IMG/VR virus record: IMGVR_UViG_3300038466_000014
Direction: 5' to 3' (one strand)
Length of the DNA stretch: 64,000 bases
Source: a virus
Under the pieces are notes generated by a model. The model did no database searches. It was not told where the DNA came from and saw only the letters and a list, made by a program, of their open reading frames with translations. Each line of letters opens with the position of its first letter. Positions within the stretch are counted from its first letter, which is position 1. Shown piece after piece: positions 11,079-51,825 of this stretch. A program made the translations under genes and the position numbers.

Positions 11079-11158
11079 TATATACCCCCGAATTGATTTT
11101 GATACGTATAACCCACGAACTTTTATGGATTATACGTATGTTTGTCATTAAATTCAAT

Positions 11159-12400
11159 CTACAATTTAGAAGCCAGTACCATATCGGTAATAGGACCTCT
11201 GGATTTAGTTCCTTTTAATACCAGATGTCCGTAGTTGGGCATACCTTTAAATTTTCTTACAACCCAGTTTAACCCGTTGTTCTGGGCGTTGAGATGCGGA
11301 TGATCTACTTGACTTGTGTCGCCAAGAATAAAACATTTTACATTTTCACCCATACGGGTCAGTATAGCCCGCATTTCATGGCGGGAGTTATTCTGACTCT
11401 CGTCCATAATAACTACGGCATTTTCTATATTCATACTTCTAACGTAACTTAAATTCATCAACTCAAATTTTTCATCGTTGAATTCAAGTTTAGAGTATGG
11501 AACTTTTGCTTTCCCATCATAATCTAAAAATATACCTGAAATGGGTCTTATCCGGTATAATTTATATATTAGATCTTTAATGCCTCTCATATAAGGAGCG
11601 GCTTTTGATTTCTCATCTCCGGGAAGGAATCCCTGCGGTTGCCCTATTTCAATCGTTGGTTTAAATACAAAAATTTTATCGAATTTTTTAGGTTTTTCGA
11701 AAACAAGTTTTAAGGCGCACGCAAGGGACAGCATTGTCTTTCCATATCCGGCTTCTGATTGTAGAGTAACAACATTGATGTCCGGATCAAGCATGAGTTC
11801 AACGGCTGCGTTTTGATAATGATTCCTTGGTGTAACATTCCAAACTATGTTGTCATATATAATTGGTTTTACGTTGTCAGAATCTTTATGATACATTAAC
11901 ATATTTTTATTTTCTGAATCTCTATAGAAGGAGTTTGATGGTTTTTGTTCATCGTTTTCATCCACAAACCCTGTATATATTTGCGATTCAGATGTGAACG
12001 CATTGGAGGAAATATACTCTTGCGAAGATATCCCCTCGTATTTTAGCTTAATCCGAAACATTCTATCATTGGTAACAACTATTTGTTCATCACAATCCTG
12101 AAAATAAATCTCTCTGTGTTTGTTGGCAAATTTTATATCCTCAATAATATCACTATCATTCGATTCATAACTGTATTTTTTACCATCTATCTTTATAACC
12201 TTTATAAAACCACTATTATCAATTTTCTCGGATATTCTTGCAATTAGATGCGCTATGTCTTGTCTACGTTTTAGACGGTCCAATTCCATTAATACAGAAT
12301 ATGGAAGAATAATTGTGTTTTCAACACCATTTCTGAGTACGTCAATGGCATCCGGGTCTTCTATTAGAACGTTCGTGTCTAAGATATATGCCTTGTGCAT
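11159..12400 (-). CDS. phoH: PIN-domain PhoH-family ATPase (PhoH2/YlaK-like)
   Basis: YILDTNVLI PIN start, VTNDR; AGYGKT, GFLPG, IMDESQN, LTRMGE, GDTSQVD. Confidence 0.92.
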   Translation of the reverse strand: MHKAYILDTNVLIEDPDAIDVLRNGVENTIILPYSVLMELDRLKRRQDIAHLIARISEKIDNSGFIKVIKIDGKKYSYESNDSDIIEDIKFANKHREIYFQDCDEQIVVTNDRMFRIKLKYEGISSQEYISSNAFTSESQIYTGFVDENDEQKPSNSFYRDSENKNMLMYHKDSDNVKPIIYDNIVWNVTPRNHYQNAAVELMLDPDINVVTLQSEAGYGKTMLSLACALKLVFEKPKKFDKIFVFKPTIEIGQPQGFLPGDEKSKAAPYMRGIKDLIYKLYRIRPISGIFLDYDGKAKVPYSKLEFNDEKFELMNLSYVRSMNIENAVVIMDESQNNSRHEMRAILTRMGENVKCFILGDTSQVDHPHLNAQNNGLNWVVRKFKGMPNYGHLVLKGTKSRGPITDMVLASKL

Positions 12401-24563: not shown

Positions 24564-24718
24564 TGGATTCCCTCCGGGAAACGGACCCCGCCCGGACACG
24601 GCGCATCCGCTCTTAGGGCGGGGTCCTATACTTTCCACACGGCACCGGACGCAGCGCGTCCGGGTTTCCTCCTCTGCCCCCTGGCCCTGGGGGGCGGTGG
24701 GTTGTTTGATTGAAAATT

Positions 24719-25591
24719 TTATCTCATTCCCCGACCCCGCATGTCATACTGGGTCGTAGGTATGTCATACGGCTCCGGAGACACCGAAAGCCGCACTTCA
24801 TACCCCGCGTAATTTGCGACAAACGGATACTTTGTCGCAATTCTTGACCTCTCGCGCCCTATCCTCTGGTAGAGCGCCCAACCATCAGCGTCCTCGCGGA
24901 GGAATGTTCTCTCCAGAATCTTCCTATCCCTCCACGGAATTCCGGGAGTGATGAGTTCATTTTGGATGTTCCCTACTCGCCTCCTCCTCTGAACGCTCCT
25001 GCGCCACAACATGTGCTGTGCCGAGGCGATGTCCGCCGCGATAAAATAATCGCGGCGGACATTACGGAGCGCAGTGCGCACTTCGCGCATTTTTCGCGGG
25101 TGTGTCGCCGCGAGCACTGCCTCGCGGACCGTTTTTTCTCCGGTCCTACCGGCAGCGGAGAGCGCCCAGTCAGCCCTGGTAGCGATCTCCATCGCTTTTT
25201 CACGGGCTTTTCGCCCCGGAATCTCCATTGCGGCGCTTTTGAGCCGCAATGCATCTTCACGCAACGCTTTGAAGACCGGCACTTGTCGCGACGCCTGCCA
25301 CGGCGTCGCGACAAGTGTGAGGGTGTCGGCCTTCAGTTCTAAAAAAGCCTGGAGGCGTTCGTCTCCGGGGAACGCCTCGTACCACGCTGGGAGGGCTAGG
25401 TGCGCGTATAAGACGCACACCATTGGATTAGACTCTTTCATAGTTTCTCCTTCGCCTTTGCGGGTTGTGGTAGCCGACCTTGGACCAAGGTCAATCCCGC
25501 AGGTAGGGTTGTGAAATACAAAAGTGCTCCCGGTTTCCCAGGAGCACCCGCAATCCAGGCAGGTCACCGTTATGGTACGCAACAACACCAC
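24719..25591 (-). CDS. Hypothetical protein in GC-rich insert (start uncertain, perhaps 25441)
   Basis: Long ORF; AAGGAG precedes internal MKESNP. Confidence 0.4.
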   Translation of the reverse strand: MVLLRTITVTCLDCGCSWETGSTFVFHNPTCGIDLGPRSATTTRKGEGETMKESNPMVCVLYAHLALPAWYEAFPGDERLQAFLELKADTLTLVATPWQASRQVPVFKALREDALRLKSAAMEIPGRKAREKAMEIATRADWALSAAGRTGEKTVREAVLAATHPRKMREVRTALRNVRRDYFIAADIASAQHMLWRRSVQRRRRVGNIQNELITPGIPWRDRKILERTFLREDADGWALYQRIGRERSRIATKYPFVANYAGYEVRLSVSPEPYDIPTTQYDMRGRGMR

Positions 25592-26051
25592 GCCGCTGCT
25601 AAATCCATGCGCTCAGATGGATGCGGTATTTCGTACCGCATCATCCTTTTGAATAGGGCGAAATTTTCTCCGGTTAAGGAGAAAGCTGCCCCACTCACCG
25701 CTACGCGGGAAAGGAGGTTTTTAGTGTCGCCGATTGCACCGGCGACATTTAACTTTATCACAGAATCATCGTCCTTTATGAGGACGATTTTATTTTCTTG
25801 CGGTGATAATATTATATCACCTGCTTTTGTGTTCAGCTCAATTACGACTTCTTCGGCCGCAGCCTTCCAGGCCGCTCCGTCGGAAGCCAACCATCGGCCT
25901 TTTCCGAGGTTCGAGAAGAGCCGCTGGCTCCTCATCGGCCCCCCGAGAGGCCCAATTCCCACTTTCAACTCGGCGTGCAAGAGAAACTGCGCCAAGGTCA
26001 ATGTATTCTGGATGGTCATATCCGTTTGGCTCTCACAACCACAACACGTCT

Positions 26052-26828
26052 CTAACATGAAGGCGGCGAGTGCCATTGCCGCCTTCTGTGTTTTTTCTTT
26101 ATTGATAAAATATTATCAGGCTGTGTAGAGTATGGATAAATTGTTCCGTAGCAGCGAATGTTTTCTATTCTTGATGTGAATACTGGAGGAAACGTTACGT
26201 TCAAATTATATCCAAATTTAATATCTCTTTCTTGCCCAAAACCTCCTAATGATACAAGAGAACCACTGGCGCCCACTAAAGATGTAAATGGTGGAAGGTA
26301 AACGTCTTCGTCGTATCCGATACTCGATCCGTACAGCGAATCCTGTACATACGGAGATACATAAATTACAGACGGGTAAGTAAAATACATCGGGAGTGTT
26401 AAGATTTGGTGGGTTTGTGTTTCAATTATTTTATGTATAGCCCCATTAATCGTTTTAAACGGTTTAATTACAGAACCATCTTCTGTATAAGAATCAGTTC
26501 TGTTTCCATCTACGTAATAAACCGATACCACTTCAGGATCGAACCCCGAGCCGCCAGTAGCGGAAATTACACCGTCTGTAATATCAATGTTTTCACCTGC
26601 TGTATAATCTCCGCTAACAACCAATTCTGCCCATTCTGTAGCTGAACGGATATATAGCTTATCATTTGCAAGCACCCGGCACATTGTTCCTTGTGGACAC
26701 AGAGCCGCCGTTATGTTATTCATATCGGTTATAGTATTGGCTATATGATATCCACCGGTTATATTGTTGGCGTTTGATATCCGATTAAAAAAATTAGCTT
26801 CTTTTTTTAACATAATTACATACTCCAA
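26052..26828 (-). CDS. Tail-fibre-like protein, C-terminus apparently truncated by the GC-rich insert
   Basis: YTAGENIDITDGVISATGG, YYVDGNRTDSYTEDGSVIKPFKTI; modules shared with 30227-30901 and 31201-31548. Confidence 0.55.
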   Translation of the reverse strand: MEYVIMLKKEANFFNRISNANNITGGYHIANTITDMNNITAALCPQGTMCRVLANDKLYIRSATEWAELVVSGDYTAGENIDITDGVISATGGSGFDPEVVSVYYVDGNRTDSYTEDGSVIKPFKTINGAIHKIIETQTHQILTLPMYFTYPSVIYVSPYVQDSLYGSSIGYDEDVYLPPFTSLVGASGSLVSLGGFGQERDIKFGYNLNVTFPPVFTSRIENIRCYGTIYPYSTQPDNILSIKKKHRRRQWHSPPSC

Positions 26829-29817: not shown

Positions 29818-30204
29818 CTATAACTCTCCTGTCTCGGATCTATAAGACGCGGAAAAATATAAAAATGCTCCATGGGGAACATTTATAGATTGATATGCGG
29901 CCAGATTATCCGTTCCTCTCTCTACCTTTAGAGCTTGTGTTCCTCCCTGGGAAAGATTGCTCGTGCTTAAAGTAGCCTCGGTATCCGAAGTCCAGCCTTC
30001 CGAAGCGCCAAGAGGATCTTCCATATCGCCGTTTATAATCAAATTTTCATTTTCAACAGGAGAGTTTTTTAATTTTCCAGATTCCACATACCAAGCGTCA
30101 TTAGATCTTTTAAACCAGAATGGGAGTAATTGATTTATCTGTCCGTCTTTCAACGTAGAAAAATCGAGATAAAAATGAGTGGTGTTGTTCGTATTAAACA
30201 GCAT
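29818..30204 (-). CDS. Short, possibly truncated CBM-like virion protein
   Basis: ENLIINGDMED...GTQALKV. Confidence 0.4.
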   Translation of the reverse strand: MLFNTNNTTHFYLDFSTLKDGQINQLLPFWFKRSNDAWYVESGKLKNSPVENENLIINGDMEDPLGASEGWTSDTEATLSTSNLSQGGTQALKVERGTDNLAAYQSINVPHGAFLYFSASYRSETGEL

Positions 30205-30226
30205 TTAAATACCTCCCGGTTCCATT

Positions 30227-33738: not shown

Positions 33739-36315
33739 CTATTCATTTTCTACATTTTCATCCAATGTTAAATCAATTCCTTTATCGATCAGCCAGTCTC
33801 CCATCTGAATGAATATAGAATCGGTATCTGTATACAAAAGATACTTTATTAATTTCTCTTTATACCCTTCGGCAAATTCAGGATCAAAGTTTATCTCATT
33901 TGTCTTCATATACTCAGAAACATGATATCCGAGAAACTTAATTACTTCCTGTCCGGTAAGAGTAATAGACATTGCCAAATCATAGTTAAAGAATCTGAAT
34001 CCGGAATTTGCCAATACTCCATATAGGGCATTAGCCAAAATTTTATAAGCTGTTTGAATATTGTTATAATATTTCTCTTGTTCTTTCTCTTTACTTTTAA
34101 CATATACCTTCATCATATCTTTATATGTAGTACGCGAATCCATCAGATATTTCAGAATACTGTAAAGAAATGATAGCTCCTCATCATGACCTTTATATAT
34201 ACATCCGTTTATGGTTATAATATAATTATTGTCTATAATCCATTTTTCAAATTCATTATATGTAAATTGTTTTTCAATCATATTGTATAAAGGATCTAAA
34301 TATACTATAAAGTTATCTTTGTATCTGGATTGAATTTTATGTATAAAGTAATATGCCACATCTGTATCTACTTTCGCTACAAATGTATTTGGGCCTATGT
34401 TACAGCTTCTGACAATAGACGGATATAGAGACGTAAAGTCAAAGTCTATAACCCATTTATGAATTCCTGGTATTGGTTTTCTCACCACTGCTCCAGGAAT
34501 CTTAAACTTTTCTCCGATCTTAGGTCTGTTTCTGCATACACAATTTGAATTTTTGGCGTAAGACAACACCAGAGGATCCAGCAATCCAGTAGTGGTTTCT
34601 GCGGATCCCCAAGATGACGCGCAAATACGAATCAATTCATATTGTAACGATATATGTCCAAGTTTCTTGTCCAGTTCGTATAGAAGATCTGTATCGGTCT
34701 GCGAGTATTCCACGAACTTATGTATATCCTGTTCATATACGTGATCCAAGGTTCCTTCATAGGCAACTTTATCTTTTGATATATTTACTTTGGCTATGTG
34801 GGATAATTTATATGTGGGTTCTTTTCCCTGAGCAAATTTCTTATATAAAAACATCATATCCGGTATAGCTATTCCCGCTATATATGCCTTTTTAATATTG
34901 TTTATATCAAAACTCGCTCTTCCGACAGGAGAAATCTCGTTGAATGATATATGATTCTTTCGCATCCGCATAAACAAGGTTGGTATATCGAATGTAGATG
35001 TATTCCATCCTGTCAATATATCGGGCAATTCCGATTTCAATACTTTTATAAAATATAATATTAATTCTTTTTCAGTATCGAAAATTTTAACATCTTTATT
35101 ATCTAAAGATACCCCTGAATTTTTTATAACCCCTATGTCGTATATCAGCACCTGTGTAGGAGTATCTCCCATTTTATAAGATATGGCGTTTATCGGCGCA
35201 AGAGCGGTTTCCGGTCTGGGAAATGATTTTTTATGATCGTTCCACACCTCCATATCCCAATACATAGTCTTAAGATTGTAATTCTTTTCTGATAAATTTC
35301 TGAGAGTTTTCTGATAAAAATAGTCTATGGAATGTCTAAGATTTTTTTGCACATCGAATTCATATACTCCTACCTCATCACTTGGTTTTGTATCGAACCG
35401 GACAACGGCGTTTTCAACTTTTTCGACAATATCTGAAAAATCGAATGGTTTCTTTCCCTCGTAAAAATATCCATGATCACTCGATAATAAGTAAAACTTT
35501 TTTTCTTTTGTTTTAGCATTAACAAATGTGAAACAAATCTCTCTGGTCGCCTTTAAATTTTGACAGTCAATATATATCATATCGGGATCAAACATCCATT
35601 CCGGATAATTGAAATAAGTTATTGAATTATTTACTATAGAGTCCGGGGATTTATATTGCATTATATATTTAACGGCACTCTTAAAATCATTTAGAAATGA
35701 TTGATAGTCCTTTGTAAGTTTGCCATCAGTAGTTCTTATACCGCCATTTCGTTTCACGTAGGATGGGTGTGTCGTAATCATCACATCTCTTCCTTCAAAC
35801 TTATGGATCGTCCCCCCTTCCTGTGTTATCTTTTTAACGGATATACCAAGGGCTTTTGCTGAAGAATTACCCATGGCTAAAATCAATTTAGGATTGGTTA
35901 TTTTTATAATCTCAAGAAGATTGTTTCTGCAAAATGTATACGCCTCCTCTGGAGGATTTGCAGTGATCCATTTTTTTCCTTTTTTAGATAAGTTCGAACA
36001 TAAACATACATTGGATATGAATAGATTCAATTTACTCATTCCTGATTCAGTTTCCGCCGATCTGTATATGCTTCCGGCTCCTCCGATCAAAGGTCTTCCG
36101 GATTGCACTTCCTCATAGGCTGGAGCTTCTCCAAGGACCAGAATGTCTATATCTCTAATATACTCTCTATTACATTCTCCAGGAACTATCGGTTGTTTAT
36201 ATAAAGGACAATCGAAACAATTGGTAAATGGGGACTTCGGATTACTAATATTTCCCTCCTTTATAAAACAATTAAAATTTGAAAATCCTGTCAGATCTTG
36301 GCACCAGTCCAACAT
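33739..36315 (-). CDS. polB: Split family B DNA polymerase, large subunit: family-4 UDG + 3'-5' exonuclease + palm/fingers (true start possibly ATT at 36249)
   Basis: CFDCPL, GEAP, SNVCLC, HPSY (UDG4); WDMEV, GWNTSTFDIP, YSQTD (exo); DFDFTSLYPS, KILANALYG, YTDTDS. Confidence 0.93.
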   Translation of the reverse strand: MLDWCQDLTGFSNFNCFIKEGNISNPKSPFTNCFDCPLYKQPIVPGECNREYIRDIDILVLGEAPAYEEVQSGRPLIGGAGSIYRSAETESGMSKLNLFISNVCLCSNLSKKGKKWITANPPEEAYTFCRNNLLEIIKITNPKLILAMGNSSAKALGISVKKITQEGGTIHKFEGRDVMITTHPSYVKRNGGIRTTDGKLTKDYQSFLNDFKSAVKYIMQYKSPDSIVNNSITYFNYPEWMFDPDMIYIDCQNLKATREICFTFVNAKTKEKKFYLLSSDHGYFYEGKKPFDFSDIVEKVENAVVRFDTKPSDEVGVYEFDVQKNLRHSIDYFYQKTLRNLSEKNYNLKTMYWDMEVWNDHKKSFPRPETALAPINAISYKMGDTPTQVLIYDIGVIKNSGVSLDNKDVKIFDTEKELILYFIKVLKSELPDILTGWNTSTFDIPTLFMRMRKNHISFNEISPVGRASFDINNIKKAYIAGIAIPDMMFLYKKFAQGKEPTYKLSHIAKVNISKDKVAYEGTLDHVYEQDIHKFVEYSQTDTDLLYELDKKLGHISLQYELIRICASSWGSAETTTGLLDPLVLSYAKNSNCVCRNRPKIGEKFKIPGAVVRKPIPGIHKWVIDFDFTSLYPSIVRSCNIGPNTFVAKVDTDVAYYFIHKIQSRYKDNFIVYLDPLYNMIEKQFTYNEFEKWIIDNNYIITINGCIYKGHDEELSFLYSILKYLMDSRTTYKDMMKVYVKSKEKEQEKYYNNIQTAYKILANALYGVLANSGFRFFNYDLAMSITLTGQEVIKFLGYHVSEYMKTNEINFDPEFAEGYKEKLIKYLLYTDTDSIFIQMGDWLIDKGIDLTLDENVENE

Positions 36316-37060
36316 CCTCAGACAGCGGTTTTAAGAAATTGGATATACGTATATCCCAGGAAAATTCAATCATCTTATCAATATCTATTATGTAATAACT
36401 CGGAAGAAATTCCTCTTCGTATGGCATAGCAATAGCATTTCCAATTTTAATTCCTTCATCTATTAATTTCTTAATCCTGTCAGGAGATTTCATATAGTTA
36501 ATACCCTCAATATTAAACATATATCCTTTAGTACCTTGTTCGAAATATGGATATTCCAGTTTATTCCATAATTTCATACTTCTAATATGCATCGTCTGTG
36601 TTTTGTACTCATCATCATTTTTATTAAAATGGACAGGACGGGCAGCCTTCTTACTTCCTTCCAAAATACCAGTGATAAGTATTTCACGAGAGTCTGTTAT
36701 GAATTTAGCAATCTTTTTAAAATCTATATAGTATTCTCTAACAAGCATATCGAGTAACATAGACAATCTTTCTTTAGTAAATTCGGGATAATCCGATCTC
36801 CTAACCTCAATACCTTTATTCTCCATTTTATCCACAGGATCTTTTTCTTTATTTATGATGTGCAACGAATATTTCTTTCCCACTCCTGGGAAATATCCGG
36901 TATCTGCGACTAATTCCTGTTTGGCGTCAAAAAGATTGAACTTATCTTTGATATTATGTTTTCTGCCAAACTCCAGCGCTATAGGTACAATCGCGTTGGC
37001 TTTTATATTTTCAGCCTCTTTTAAAATAAGCGCAACGAGGTCTTCTTTTTTGATGCTCAT
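36272..37060 (-). CDS. Split family B DNA polymerase, C-terminal (thumb) subunit
   Basis: KQELVA...KKYSL, KGIEVRRSDYP: motifs that normally follow YxDTDS. Confidence 0.88.
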   Translation of the reverse strand: MSIKKEDLVALILKEAENIKANAIVPIALEFGRKHNIKDKFNLFDAKQELVADTGYFPGVGKKYSLHIINKEKDPVDKMENKGIEVRRSDYPEFTKERLSMLLDMLVREYYIDFKKIAKFITDSREILITGILEGSKKAARPVHFNKNDDEYKTQTMHIRSMKLWNKLEYPYFEQGTKGYMFNIEGINYMKSPDRIKKLIDEGIKIGNAIAMPYEEEFLPSYYIIDIDKMIEFSWDIRISNFLKPLSEDVGLVPRSDRIFKF

Positions 37061-38050
37061 CGGGCACCGCCCGATGATTCCAGTTGAACCGCCTTTTCGG
37101 AACTCTGGTTTGGCGGACCACCAATAGACCGCACGGCTGAAACACTGTGTCCAACCGTTTGCTCATAGAGAAACCACCCATTGGCAGAAACATTAAAGGC
37201 CGCGTTTGAGTCTCTATGGTCAAAGTGAGAACATGAACATTTGTAGTTCTTTCCGTTTGGTTTGTTGATACTTCCGCACCTTGAGCAAACCTGACTTGTA
37301 TAAGCAGGATTTACGAAGAAGATTGGTATGCCAAGCAAAGATGCTTTGTATTTGATAAAGGTTTCCAAAGCAAAACGATGTGATTTGGCATAGTCAACAA
37401 CGGAACGACTCACTTTATGATTGATATCTTTAACTCTGTTTGACTGTTTACTTCTGATTTTCTTTAAAGCATCTTTAGCACCTTTCTTTTGTAAGTTCTT
37501 TCTTCTATTGCGGAAACTTTTAGTTATTCCAGACACATCTGGACCTAACTTCCTAACCTTTCCAGACATAACATCCGCACAAACCACAACATTCTCCACA
37601 CTGTTTCTATCAACTCCAAGAAATCCTTGAATTTTCTGTTCTTGTAAAACAGGAGTGTTGTAAGAGTAGGATATAAACCATTGCCCATTTCTTTTGAAAA
37701 ACTCTGCCTGTCTAATAAAACCAGAAATGGTTTTAGGAAATACAACAGGCAAAATAGATTTTTTGAAGAAGGCTGGGATTCGAATACCACCATCTACAAT
37801 CTTTACTTGTTTTCCTTTATCACCGCAAACAGGTAAAACAAGATTTTTGACCTGCTTGATCTTTTTGTTTCTCTGATATTTAGAAATAAGACTTTTAGCA
37901 AGAACACAAGGTATCTCTTTGTAATATTTAGAAGAAGATTTAGTTCTGTCTTCTATCATTCTGTTTACACAAACAGAAGCTTTTTGGTATAACTCGTCCA
38001 AAATAGGAGTAAGATTGTGAGGTATAACGACCTTAAAAGTAAGACACATT
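37057..38050 (-). CDS. tnpB: TnpB RNA-guided nuclease homolog with RuvC-II segment missing (ORF track extends to 38127)
   Basis: FLGVDRN, NHKVSR, YKA, VNPAYTSQVCSRCG, DHRDSNAAFNV; no LEDL region. Confidence 0.9.
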
Positions 38051-38415
38051 GTAAGTTCTTTCTCGTATACCATGTTGTGTTTGTAACCAAGTTTCGCTAT
38101 AAAATTTTCCATCAACACATTCTCCAAGATTTGATTTTAACTCTTCCAGAAATGGCTAAACAAATGTCTGTAAATATTTCTGAAATAAACGGTGAAGAAG
38201 ACCACATACATTTTCTTTTGGAAACAACACCACAAGACAATCTTGGTGGTGTTATAGGGGCACTAAAAGCACGGTCTTCTTCGTATCTACACGACAAATA
38301 TATCTTTCCATATTTGGGAAAACATTCCAGAACTCTTTGGTCTTCTGGGTATTTTATAGTATCCACTGGCGGTGCTCCTTTAGATGTTATTAAAAAGTAT
38401 ATCCAAAACCAATAA
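38017..38415 (+). CDS. tnpA: IS200-type HUH Y1 transposase
   Basis: YHVVFVTKFR, EEDHIHFL, LWSSGYF, IKKYIQNQ. Confidence 0.95.
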   Translation: MRYNDLKSKTHCKFFLVYHVVFVTKFRYKIFHQHILQDLILTLPEMAKQMSVNISEINGEEDHIHFLLETTPQDNLGGVIGALKARSSSYLHDKYIFPYLGKHSRTLWSSGYFIVSTGGAPLDVIKKYIQNQ

Positions 38416-38488
38416 TAAGTATTAAATCCTACTTGTCAAGAGCCTAACCCCGAACACCGTTCGGGGATTGCGGCTCTAATACTGTTGA

Positions 38489-50084: not shown

Positions 50085-50499
50085 TTACCGGGCTTTTCGA
50101 TTTTCGATATTGAATGTGGATATAAACAATAAAATCTCCTCGTCCGGCATTACATCATGCGCGTCGATGTAGTGAGCATACCCTTCCGGCCACAACCAGA
50201 AACGCCCGCTATCGTCCAGTAAACTATATTCATCGTTTCCATTCATCTGTCCGCAGATTCTACAATCACTACATCCCATATGAATTAATTATGGCTACTT
50301 CATTTTCTATCCTGTGTAGTTTCGTAAGAAACAAGAATTTGAATTCCCCTCGGTTTATCCCATCTGATTTACATCTAACCCGAAGGGTATCTTTTTCCGG
50401 ATAAGGTAGTTCCTCTGTCGAATTATAACAACTTCTCCAGAAGCCGACTTTCTTTTTATTTGTAAATCCTAATAGATTTACCATTTGTTTTATTTTCAT
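50085..50499 (-). pseudogene. Frameshifted conserved hypothetical protein
   Basis: VGFW N-half and GCSDCRIC..NG...WPEGYAHY C-half offset at tcatatggg near 50278. Confidence 0.55.
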
Positions 50500-50743
50500 C
50501 GTGATTGCCAAGTATAAGGTGCTTAGTACCATTAAGTTTCTCTAAAACCCTTCGTACATTCGTTAAGCGGCGTTCAAATGGCATAAAATCACCAAGCATA
50601 AACACTGTATCATCTTTTTTTACTTTACGGTTGTGCTTTTCAATAAGCACGATGTTCATTTGTTTATAATCTTTAAAGGGTCTATTACAATGTCTAATAA
50701 TACTTCCGTGGTCATAGTGCTGATCCGATGTAAAATACAACAT
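50456..50743 (-). pseudogene. Truncated metallophosphoesterase
   Basis: FTSDQH, LGDF, GNHD, then ends without the last two motifs. Confidence 0.7.
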
Positions 50744-50745
50744 TA

Positions 50746-51375
50746 TTAATATACTACCTTATTATCTTCTATTATCTTAATAATAGAATTAATCATCTCA
50801 TCGGTTATAGTATTACTAATATTTGTAAGATAATTTGACAGTTCCGTTATATAAGCAGGTCTATTTCCTCTATCCATAGACTCAATCCTATCTTTTTCTA
50901 GAGGATCACATGCACCAATATGTAATAGCAACATCTTATTAATATACTTATATGTATAAAAATAAATTGCCACAAGTAATTTTAATAAATCCTTATGTGA
51001 CCATTGTTCTATATGAGGAATCATACTAATATTATCAGCATCAAAACTTATACTATAATGTAATAACCACTCATTAGAAATACCACCAACCTTCTGCATA
51101 TTACGTATGTCTAAAATAATACCTACCAACATTCTTAATTTGTTCTGCATAGATGTATCTTTAGGTAGTGGTATTATACAACGATTAATAGTAGAGCCTA
51201 AACACGTTTCAAATTTGCATAACTTTGGTATATAAAAATCATCTATCTTACAAGTACTAATTGTTTTAAAAATAAGACTATTATCATCTATAAGTTTCTT
51301 TACTACTTTGAGTATTATATCAGAGTTATAATGGTATGTATCCAAGTCAATGGGTGTCATATATTTGATGTTCAT
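50746..51375 (-). CDS. Hypothetical protein; C-terminal part of a gene split by the mini-element
   Basis: SD and first codons (MNI) lie inside the element right end. Confidence 0.6.
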   Translation of the reverse strand: MNIKYMTPIDLDTYHYNSDIILKVVKKLIDDNSLIFKTISTCKIDDFYIPKLCKFETCLGSTINRCIIPLPKDTSMQNKLRMLVGIILDIRNMQKVGGISNEWLLHYSISFDADNISMIPHIEQWSHKDLLKLLVAIYFYTYKYINKMLLLHIGACDPLEKDRIESMDRGNRPAYITELSNYLTNISNTITDEMINSIIKIIEDNKVVY

Positions 51376-51511
51376 TGAATACCTCCCGATGATTCCGGTC
51401 TGGAGATCTCCGGCCTTTCGGCGTGAGTTCCAGCGTTAATGATCAATTTAATCCTCCTTGTTTACAGAGCCTAACCCCGAACACCGTTCGGGGATTGCGG
51501 CTCTAATACTG
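51365..51511 (-). mobile_element. 147-bp non-autonomous IS605 derivative (PATE/MITE-like)
   Basis: 48 nt identical between 51466-51513 and 38439-38486; right end GGAATCATCGGGAGGTATTCAATGAACATCAA resembles GGAATCATCGGGCGGTGCCCGATGAGCATCAA. Confidence 0.88.
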
Positions 51512-51825
51512 TTCATATAATCGCGCCCATATAAATTTGATTTTTTATTTAAAATGGCACACACAAATTCTATTAATCTGTATTTCGCGATAGAAATATC
51601 TCCGGTAGTTATAATATAAGGATTACCAGCATTATCCAAATATACTTTGTCGAGAAAAATATCTAAAATTATTTCCTCTTCTTTCAATCTTTTATATTTA
51701 TCAACAATCGTATATTTTACTTTAATATTTTCCTCGGTTAACATCTCTTGTTTATATAATCCTTGAGTAATTTTAAAATCTGTATCTATTAGTTCGACCG
51801 AATGTGGCTTTGTAATATTATTCAT
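51448..51825 (-). CDS. Hypothetical protein; N-terminal part of the split gene
   Basis: Last 21 aa and stop are encoded by the element left end. Confidence 0.6.
   Translation of the reverse strand: MNNITKPHSVELIDTDFKITQGLYKQEMLTEENIKVKYTIVDKYKRLKEEEIILDIFLDKVYLDNAGNPYIITTGDISIAKYRLIEFVCAILNKKSNLYGRDYMNSIRAAIPERCSGLGSVNKED

Follow-up and report, generated by a model that had tools for sequence, protein, structure and literature searches.

The locus lies in a window of 64,000 nucleotides, i.e. the whole stretch analysed of the virus record IMGVR_UViG_3300038466_000014. At 50746-51825 the minus strand is the sense strand, and two open reading frames (ORFs) follow each other on it, an N-half of 125 amino acids (51448-51825) and a C-half of 209 amino acids (50746-51375). 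Between their native parts lies a gene-less, non-autonomous mini-element of the IS200/IS605 type (PATE-like; 51365-51511, minus strand). It comprises 147 nt, its top strand is the sense strand of the host gene, and it is G+C-rich as compared to its 32% G+C context. The N-half starts with an ATG at 51825 which overlaps the stop codon of an upstream gene of 181 amino acids, and the C-half is followed by a metallophosphoesterase gene (50085-50743, minus strand). A full insertion sequence (IS) resides approximately 13 kb from the mini-element (37050-38484, minus strand).

Results

One gene split into two ORFs

The initial annotation had proposed that removal of 51365-51511 fuses the two ORFs into one. 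This was confirmed: in silico deletion yields a single ORF of 933 nt and 310 codons with no internal stop, and the junction reads GAT TAT ATG AAA TAT ATG ACA. The native N-terminal part (51512-51825, minus strand) comprises 104 codons plus 2 bases. In the present N-half it is extended by a tail of 21 amino acids, read from the left end of the element up to a TAA at 51450-51448. The C-half consists of the residues MNIK, encoded by the element, and of 205 native residues (50746-51364). The element therefore does, as claimed, donate a stop to the N-half and a Shine-Dalgarno sequence (SD) plus start codon to the C-half, the latter being GGGAGGT (51387-51381) located 5 nt before the ATG at 51375. 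Neither half carries further lesions, and they are open over 104 and 207 codons, respectively. That the length of 147 nt is a multiple of 3 was noted correctly. Its role in the split, however, is incidental, because the C-half is read in the frame dictated by the donated ATG, whose distance from the junction always exceeds that of the target ATG by 6 nt, and because the element contains two in-frame TAA codons.

Two genes that were always separate, with the element in the intervening space or at the start codon of the downstream gene, are a very improbable explanation. Most of the 13 family insertions with both ends identified are indeed found at gene starts or near gene ends, and ATGAA is often a start codon. 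Upon removal of the element, however, no stop is left between the two frames, and the N frame continues into the C frame. Moreover, the N frame is real coding sequence, since its start overlaps the upstream stop and a frame of 104 codons would stay open by chance at the local base composition with P ~2e-4. Of the 13 insertions, only that of the mini-element clearly lies in mid-gene, preceded by 104 codons and followed by 207. An exact repeat of 46 nt is shared with the full IS 13 kb away and could have given rise to an assembly artefact. The genes around the element, however, are co-linear, its flanks are the two in-frame halves of a single ORF, and its right side resembles nothing elsewhere in the window. 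A chimeric join would not yield this, and we regard an artefact as hardly credible.

The sequence TATATGA is present on both flanks of the mini-element, 1 nt from each boundary (window 51505-51525 and 51355-51364). The reconstructed empty site contains an in-frame 9-nt tandem, TATATGAAA TATATGACA, which may be a native repeat or a duplication, or the true insert may comprise 156 nt. Insertion of IS200/IS605 elements does not generate a target duplication. Hopping of ribosomes from one ATG AAC copy at the element's ends to the other was considered and rejected, as they would have to cross 141 nt and the take-off codon is not followed by a stop.

The mini-element and its parent group

The mini-element is inserted 3' of an in-frame ATGAA and terminates in ATCAA. 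ATGAA is also the target of 7 of the 12 other family insertions with both ends identified, and relatives in IMG/VR phage contigs show the general habit of the group to insert 3' of (A/T)TGAA. The left end (51466-51511, minus strand) had been described as identical to that of the full IS, and the identity is complete (46/46 nt, 51511-51466 versus 38484-38439), with 0 matches expected by chance. It contains a nested hairpin with an outer stem AGAGCC..GGCTCT around CCCCGAAC-GGT-GTTCGGGG, which is predicted to be stable as DNA (-14.1 kcal/mol, z -4.2). Hereby the mini-element has its left-end hairpin in common with an autonomous element encoding a Y1 HUH TnpA.

This autonomous element, the resident IS, represents lineage A of the group. 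Its tnpA (38017-38415, plus strand) gives a full-length match to Y1_Tnp (PF01797, 1.6e-29), and its tnpB (37057-38127, minus strand; PF07282) lacks 28 amino acids including RuvC-II. The right-end hairpin ATCGGGC-GGT-GCCCGAT is intact and lies 9 nt from the terminal ATCAA; the end of the IS is at 37050 (not 37061). Right ends of the group finish in ATGAGCATCAA and thereby bring an ATG that shares its frame with the target ATG. The TGA stop of the group's tnpB overlaps this right-end ATG. The start of the thumb gene of a split family B DNA polymerase (33739-37060, minus strand) is occupied by the resident IS. Two genes encode this polymerase; the one for the thumb piece precedes that for the exonuclease/palm piece, whose N-terminus is UDG-like.

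The left end of the group was absent from 185,579 prokaryote genomes (GTDB), and so far the group is known only from phage contigs. Further elements with this left end and the right-end motif 60-90 nt later were found neither in IMG/VR nor in the JGI metagenomes or the GTDB genomes. Other mini-elements of the group measure 201 nt (L050), 312 nt (L063) and 572 nt (L035), and their right ends are all intact. In L080 and L058 only ~45 nt of the right end are recognisable (hairpin plus ATGAGCATCAA); the one of L080 directly follows ...ATGAAAAAAG and is possibly a solo right-end remnant. A group I intron or IStron was rejected as the identity of the insert, as no ribozyme core was found (Rfam gave no match in 51200-51700 except noise-level sroH) and 147 nt is too short for one.

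Chimeric origin of the right side

The initial annotation took the right end for a diverged copy of the resident one. It does keep GGAATCATCGGG and ATGA.CATCAA, and 30/40 positions agree with the resident right end when the flank is counted. It is not a diverged copy of it, however, and originates from another lineage of the group. The block from CTGGAACTCACGCC to AATCATCGGG (51385-51433, minus strand) is identical to L050 upstream of the hairpin at 39/41 positions. L050 is located in IMGVR_UViG_3300009087_000006 and serves only as a proxy for the parent of the right end. The right side is also similar to L062, a tnpB-only element of 1.2 kb on the contig of L050, and is unlike any other part of the window. 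A relic ORF of 24 codons (51372-51446, minus strand; ..ESSGG) is a remnant of the C-terminus of lineage-B TnpB, with 50% identity over 32 amino acids to the L062 TnpB in tblastn. The TnpB proteins of L062 and the resident IS have 30% identity. One scaffold stem is left in the right-side block, CTGGA..TCCAG with GCC-GAAA-GGC.

Judged from these identities, the mini-element is a chimera of a lineage-A left end, as in the resident IS, and a lineage-B right side. As both lineages have left-end and right-end hairpins in common, one TnpA presumably serves both TnpB lineages, comparable to the Geobacillus group (PMC10055086). The locus also shows that two TnpB lineages with common ends, presumably one TnpA mobilisation group, coexist and recombine in phage genomes.

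Loss of the right-end hairpin

The former right-end hairpin of the mini-element (51372-51392, minus strand) is destroyed, reading TCATCGGGA-GGT-ATTCAATGA as compared to TCATCGGGC-GGC-GCCTGATGA in L050. Relative to L050, 7/21 positions are substituted in the hairpin versus 3/48 nearby (Fisher p 0.0066), and the 46-nt left end carries 0 substitutions. As DNA, the right end is predicted to fold with -4.1 kcal/mol (z +0.4) versus -12.4 kcal/mol (z -3.1) for the full IS, which leaves no stable fold for recognition by the same TnpA. Almost every family copy that has a recognisable left end or looks mobile keeps the hairpin (intact in L001-L004, L031, L033-L036, L050, L062 and L063). By descent the mini-element is PATE-like, but it would no longer be a competent member since the hairpin at its right end is gone.

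It had been suggested that the element may still be mobile, that TnpA in trans could excise it precisely and toggle between split and fused protein, and that its right end may give rise to an omegaRNA-like guide with the flanking gene sequence as spacer. Several features agree with this. Left end and ATGAA target have remained intact, and the match of the resident tnpA to Y1_Tnp is full-length. The element also retains GGAAT ahead of the former hairpin as well as the TCAA cleavage motif, and omegaRNA-carrying PATEs are known (PMC10055086). TnpA excision, however, requires both ends and their stem-loops, and scrambling of either end abolishes it (PMC10055086). Due to the destroyed right-end hairpin, excision of the mini-element in trans is unlikely, and the proposed toggle finds no support. 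An empty junction, i.e. TATATGAA joined directly to ATATATGAC, was not found in the JGI metagenomes, which weighs little, as the contig itself is absent from that collection.

The left end of the mini-element (51511) and the right end of the full IS (37050) are both intact, agree in strand and orientation, and are separated by 14.4 kb. TnpA may in principle treat 51511-37050 as a composite element spanning replication genes.

The right end as a proposed guide RNA

In lineage-A elements the last 176 nt show a conserved multi-stem fold with compensatory changes at 16/51 pairs, which we interpret as the expected omegaRNA scaffold. When the two right ends are compared, as the initial annotation had proposed, a covariance model built on the last 109 nt of the family right-end RNA scores the full IS with 132.9 bits and the mini-element with 13.5 bits (E 0.16), the latter value being below a chance match at 11099-11224 in the same window. 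Only one scaffold stem is kept relative to the element's own lineage, and Rfam gave no match for the mini-element RNA. No promoter-like site was found inside the mini-element, and the inward left-end promoter-like site of the full IS, TTGACA-16-TATTAT (11/12), is absent from it. The sole TnpB in the window belongs to lineage A, is 30% identical to the lineage that donated the right end and lacks, within the 28 missing amino acids, the RuvC-II glutamate; no lineage-B TnpB was found in the window, which covers 64,000 nt of a contig of 180 kb. This argues against an omegaRNA-like guide, and a mini-element that is still mobile and guide-producing is improbable.

Translation signals in the element

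At the RNA level, the SD-like GGGCGG and the AUG are buried in the canonical right-end hairpin (-16.2 kcal/mol). The corresponding 50 nt of the mini-element fold with -4.1 kcal/mol, a stability equalled or exceeded by 190 of 200 shuffles. The hairpin changes expose the GGGAGGT in front of the donated ATG. It equals the best native sites in the window, where many native genes carry AGGAG, GGAGG or GGAGGT 5-10 nt before their ATG. A further SD, AAGGAGG (51459-51453), is followed after 6 nt by a TTG, which is located 1 nt past the TAA of the N-half. The 24-codon relic ORF ends in a TGA overlapping the donated ATG (ATGA).

Two other right ends of the family are without hairpin, those of L032/L045, a tnpB-only element, and of L037, a 5'-truncated relic. 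Both are without a left end and have GGAG or AGGAGGTG before the retained ATG. Loss of the hairpin together with gain of an SD thus recurs in immobilised copies. We hypothesise from these three cases that the downstream frame is selected for translation once the element cannot leave.

Within the window no donor for the new SD stretch was found at up to 3 mismatches. The native ribosome binding site (RBS) of the gene at 29818-30204 (30205-30225, minus strand), CGGGAGGTATTTAAATG, has an 11-mer in common with the remodelled right end, CGGGAGGTATTCAATG; both convergence on an optimal site and a conversion donor are possible. In two other phage contigs (L037:1190-1582 and L032:1180-2320) the downstream gene still has the right-end ATG as its start, preceded by a strong SD. 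In these relics, L037 and L032, the right-end hairpin is lost or replaced.

Homologues and neighbourhood

Relatives of either half were found neither in 5.8 billion clustered proteins nor in 1.84 billion representatives (phmmer for the latter). Search of 50,697 phage records by tblastn revealed no homologue, fused or split, and megablast of the 4-kb region and an IMG/VR locus search returned only the window's own products. A word-index search gave no homologues of the C-half, nor of the N-half at near and longer lengths. The sole database match of the N-half is its own gene-caller product (P0002, 125 amino acids), and that of the C-half is itself from the second ATG (P0001, 204 amino acids). 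On the basis of these searches both halves are ORFans, which makes purifying selection on them and a fused ancestor hypothetical. The ESM Atlas gave no usable match, and an AlphaFold2 model of the read-through product (TAA=Q) was uninformative (pLDDT 31).

The upstream gene of 181 amino acids has relatives at 22 loci (28-37% identity). At 5 of the 22 an unrelated ORF of 106-121 amino acids precedes the phosphoesterase. A hydrophobic N-terminal segment is present in four of these five small ORFs and in similar ORFs at two further loci. None of the syntenic small ORFs in distant relatives resembles either half. The downstream metallophosphoesterase is cut to 95 amino acids (Pfam positions 5-77 of 191), with ORFs in other frames behind it. 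In distant relatives the same place is occupied by a metallophosphoesterase gene encoding 289-307 amino acids. Accessory genes in this stretch therefore do decay. Elsewhere in the 32% G+C genome, an island at 24700-26100 has 56% G+C, and its ORFs (290 and 168 amino acids) gave no Pfam match.

This decay bears on a plain disruption, in which the ORFan was dispensable, the insertion neutral and the halves non-functional, and the right-end changes reflect decay of a GC-rich hairpin that is no longer maintained. Such an outcome has an appreciable, if lesser, probability. No homologue was found, the structure predictions are of low confidence, and the neighbouring gene is truncated. In addition, 7 of the 8 right-end changes (hairpin and tail) replace GC by AT, as drift tends to do in a genome of 32% GC, which counts against a fixed insertion serving as RBS. 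On the other hand, decay is limited to the hairpin, as the equally GC-rich left-end hairpin is unchanged (46/46) and the adjacent stretch nearly so (39/41). Moreover, the changes give a consensus SD at ideal spacing, comparable to the best native sites, and both halves are still open.

Discussion

We consider it probable that the mini-element is fixed in place and now provides an RBS through its right end, and that it is neither an excisable switch nor a guide-RNA gene. In the proposed course of events, a gene-less deletion derivative of a phage-borne IS200/IS605 group landed 3' of an internal in-frame ATG-AA in a gene of 310 codons. As every insertion of the group does, this one would have brought an early stop with its left end and, with its right end, an ATG matching the target ATG in frame, converting one gene into two cistrons of 104 + 21 and 4 + 205 amino acids. 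After insertion, a tight cluster of substitutions would have erased the right-end hairpin, i.e. the structure recognised by TnpA, leaving an unstructured consensus RBS (GGGAGGT, 5 nt, ATG). The second SD, AAGGAGG, with its TTG would open the 24-codon relic of the tnpB 3' end, bridging the first stop to the second start. If the element works as anything, it may work as an intercistronic translation coupler.

The most far-reaching form of this idea is tentative: a transposon end turned into an intercistronic translation cassette, in which the hairpin is erased, the tnpB relic relays ribosomes and both halves make up a coupled, working two-piece protein. That the two pieces form a functional protein at all is possible, with the balance leaning against it. 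The noteworthy part is the right end, remodelled into what appears to be an RBS. If both halves are made and working, the locus would represent a compact natural case of neutralising a transposon insertion in mid-gene with neither splicing nor excision. The start codon of the element would have been kept, and the masking structure of transposase and guide RNA would have been erased. If the gene is dead, the element is an ordinary decayed mini-IS.

Comparison with known systems places the parent group close to IS608 and ISDra2. It has in common with them a Y1 HUH TnpA and a structured RNA with covariation at the tnpB 3' end, and the hairpins are likewise located 18 nt (left) and 9 nt (right) from the cuts. 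The right end of IS608 has TCAA after a GAAT-type motif, as in the parent group. The group differs in its target, (A/T)TGAA, and in the right-end ATG that is in frame with the target ATG. Rickettsia palindromic elements, which reportedly occur in frame inside coding genes, are likewise small palindromic elements within ORFs. They comprise ~100-150 nt, a multiple of 3, and are translated through as part of the protein, whereas the present element contains two in-frame stops and translation would restart. Further gene-less derivatives of IS200/IS605 elements are the haloarchaeal PATEs and the cyanobacterial Nezha element.

The PATEs of Geobacillus stearothermophilus (Meers et al., PMC10055086) are likewise short and gene-less, with IS200/IS605 left and right ends in common with a tnpA-bearing element in the same genome, and are likewise located 3' of the family target motif. 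They lack a target duplication, and the same may hold for the present element. In contrast to them, the right-end hairpin is destroyed here, and mobilisation is probably impossible. The present element also differs by its in-frame position inside a phage gene, its origin as a chimera of two lineages, and a right end that provides SD and ATG for the downstream half.

In functional terms, the nearest analogy is nrdA of Aeromonas phage Aeh1, which is split by the homing endonuclease gene mobE and whose halves form an active enzyme (Crona et al. 2010, PMC3045599). Here the insert is a transposon relic of 147 nt. In both cases, a mobile element in a phage gene is found between two halves, translated separately in Aeh1 and presumably also here, each with a short insertion-derived tail, and in the split nrdA of Aeh1 these tails are essential (PMC3045599).
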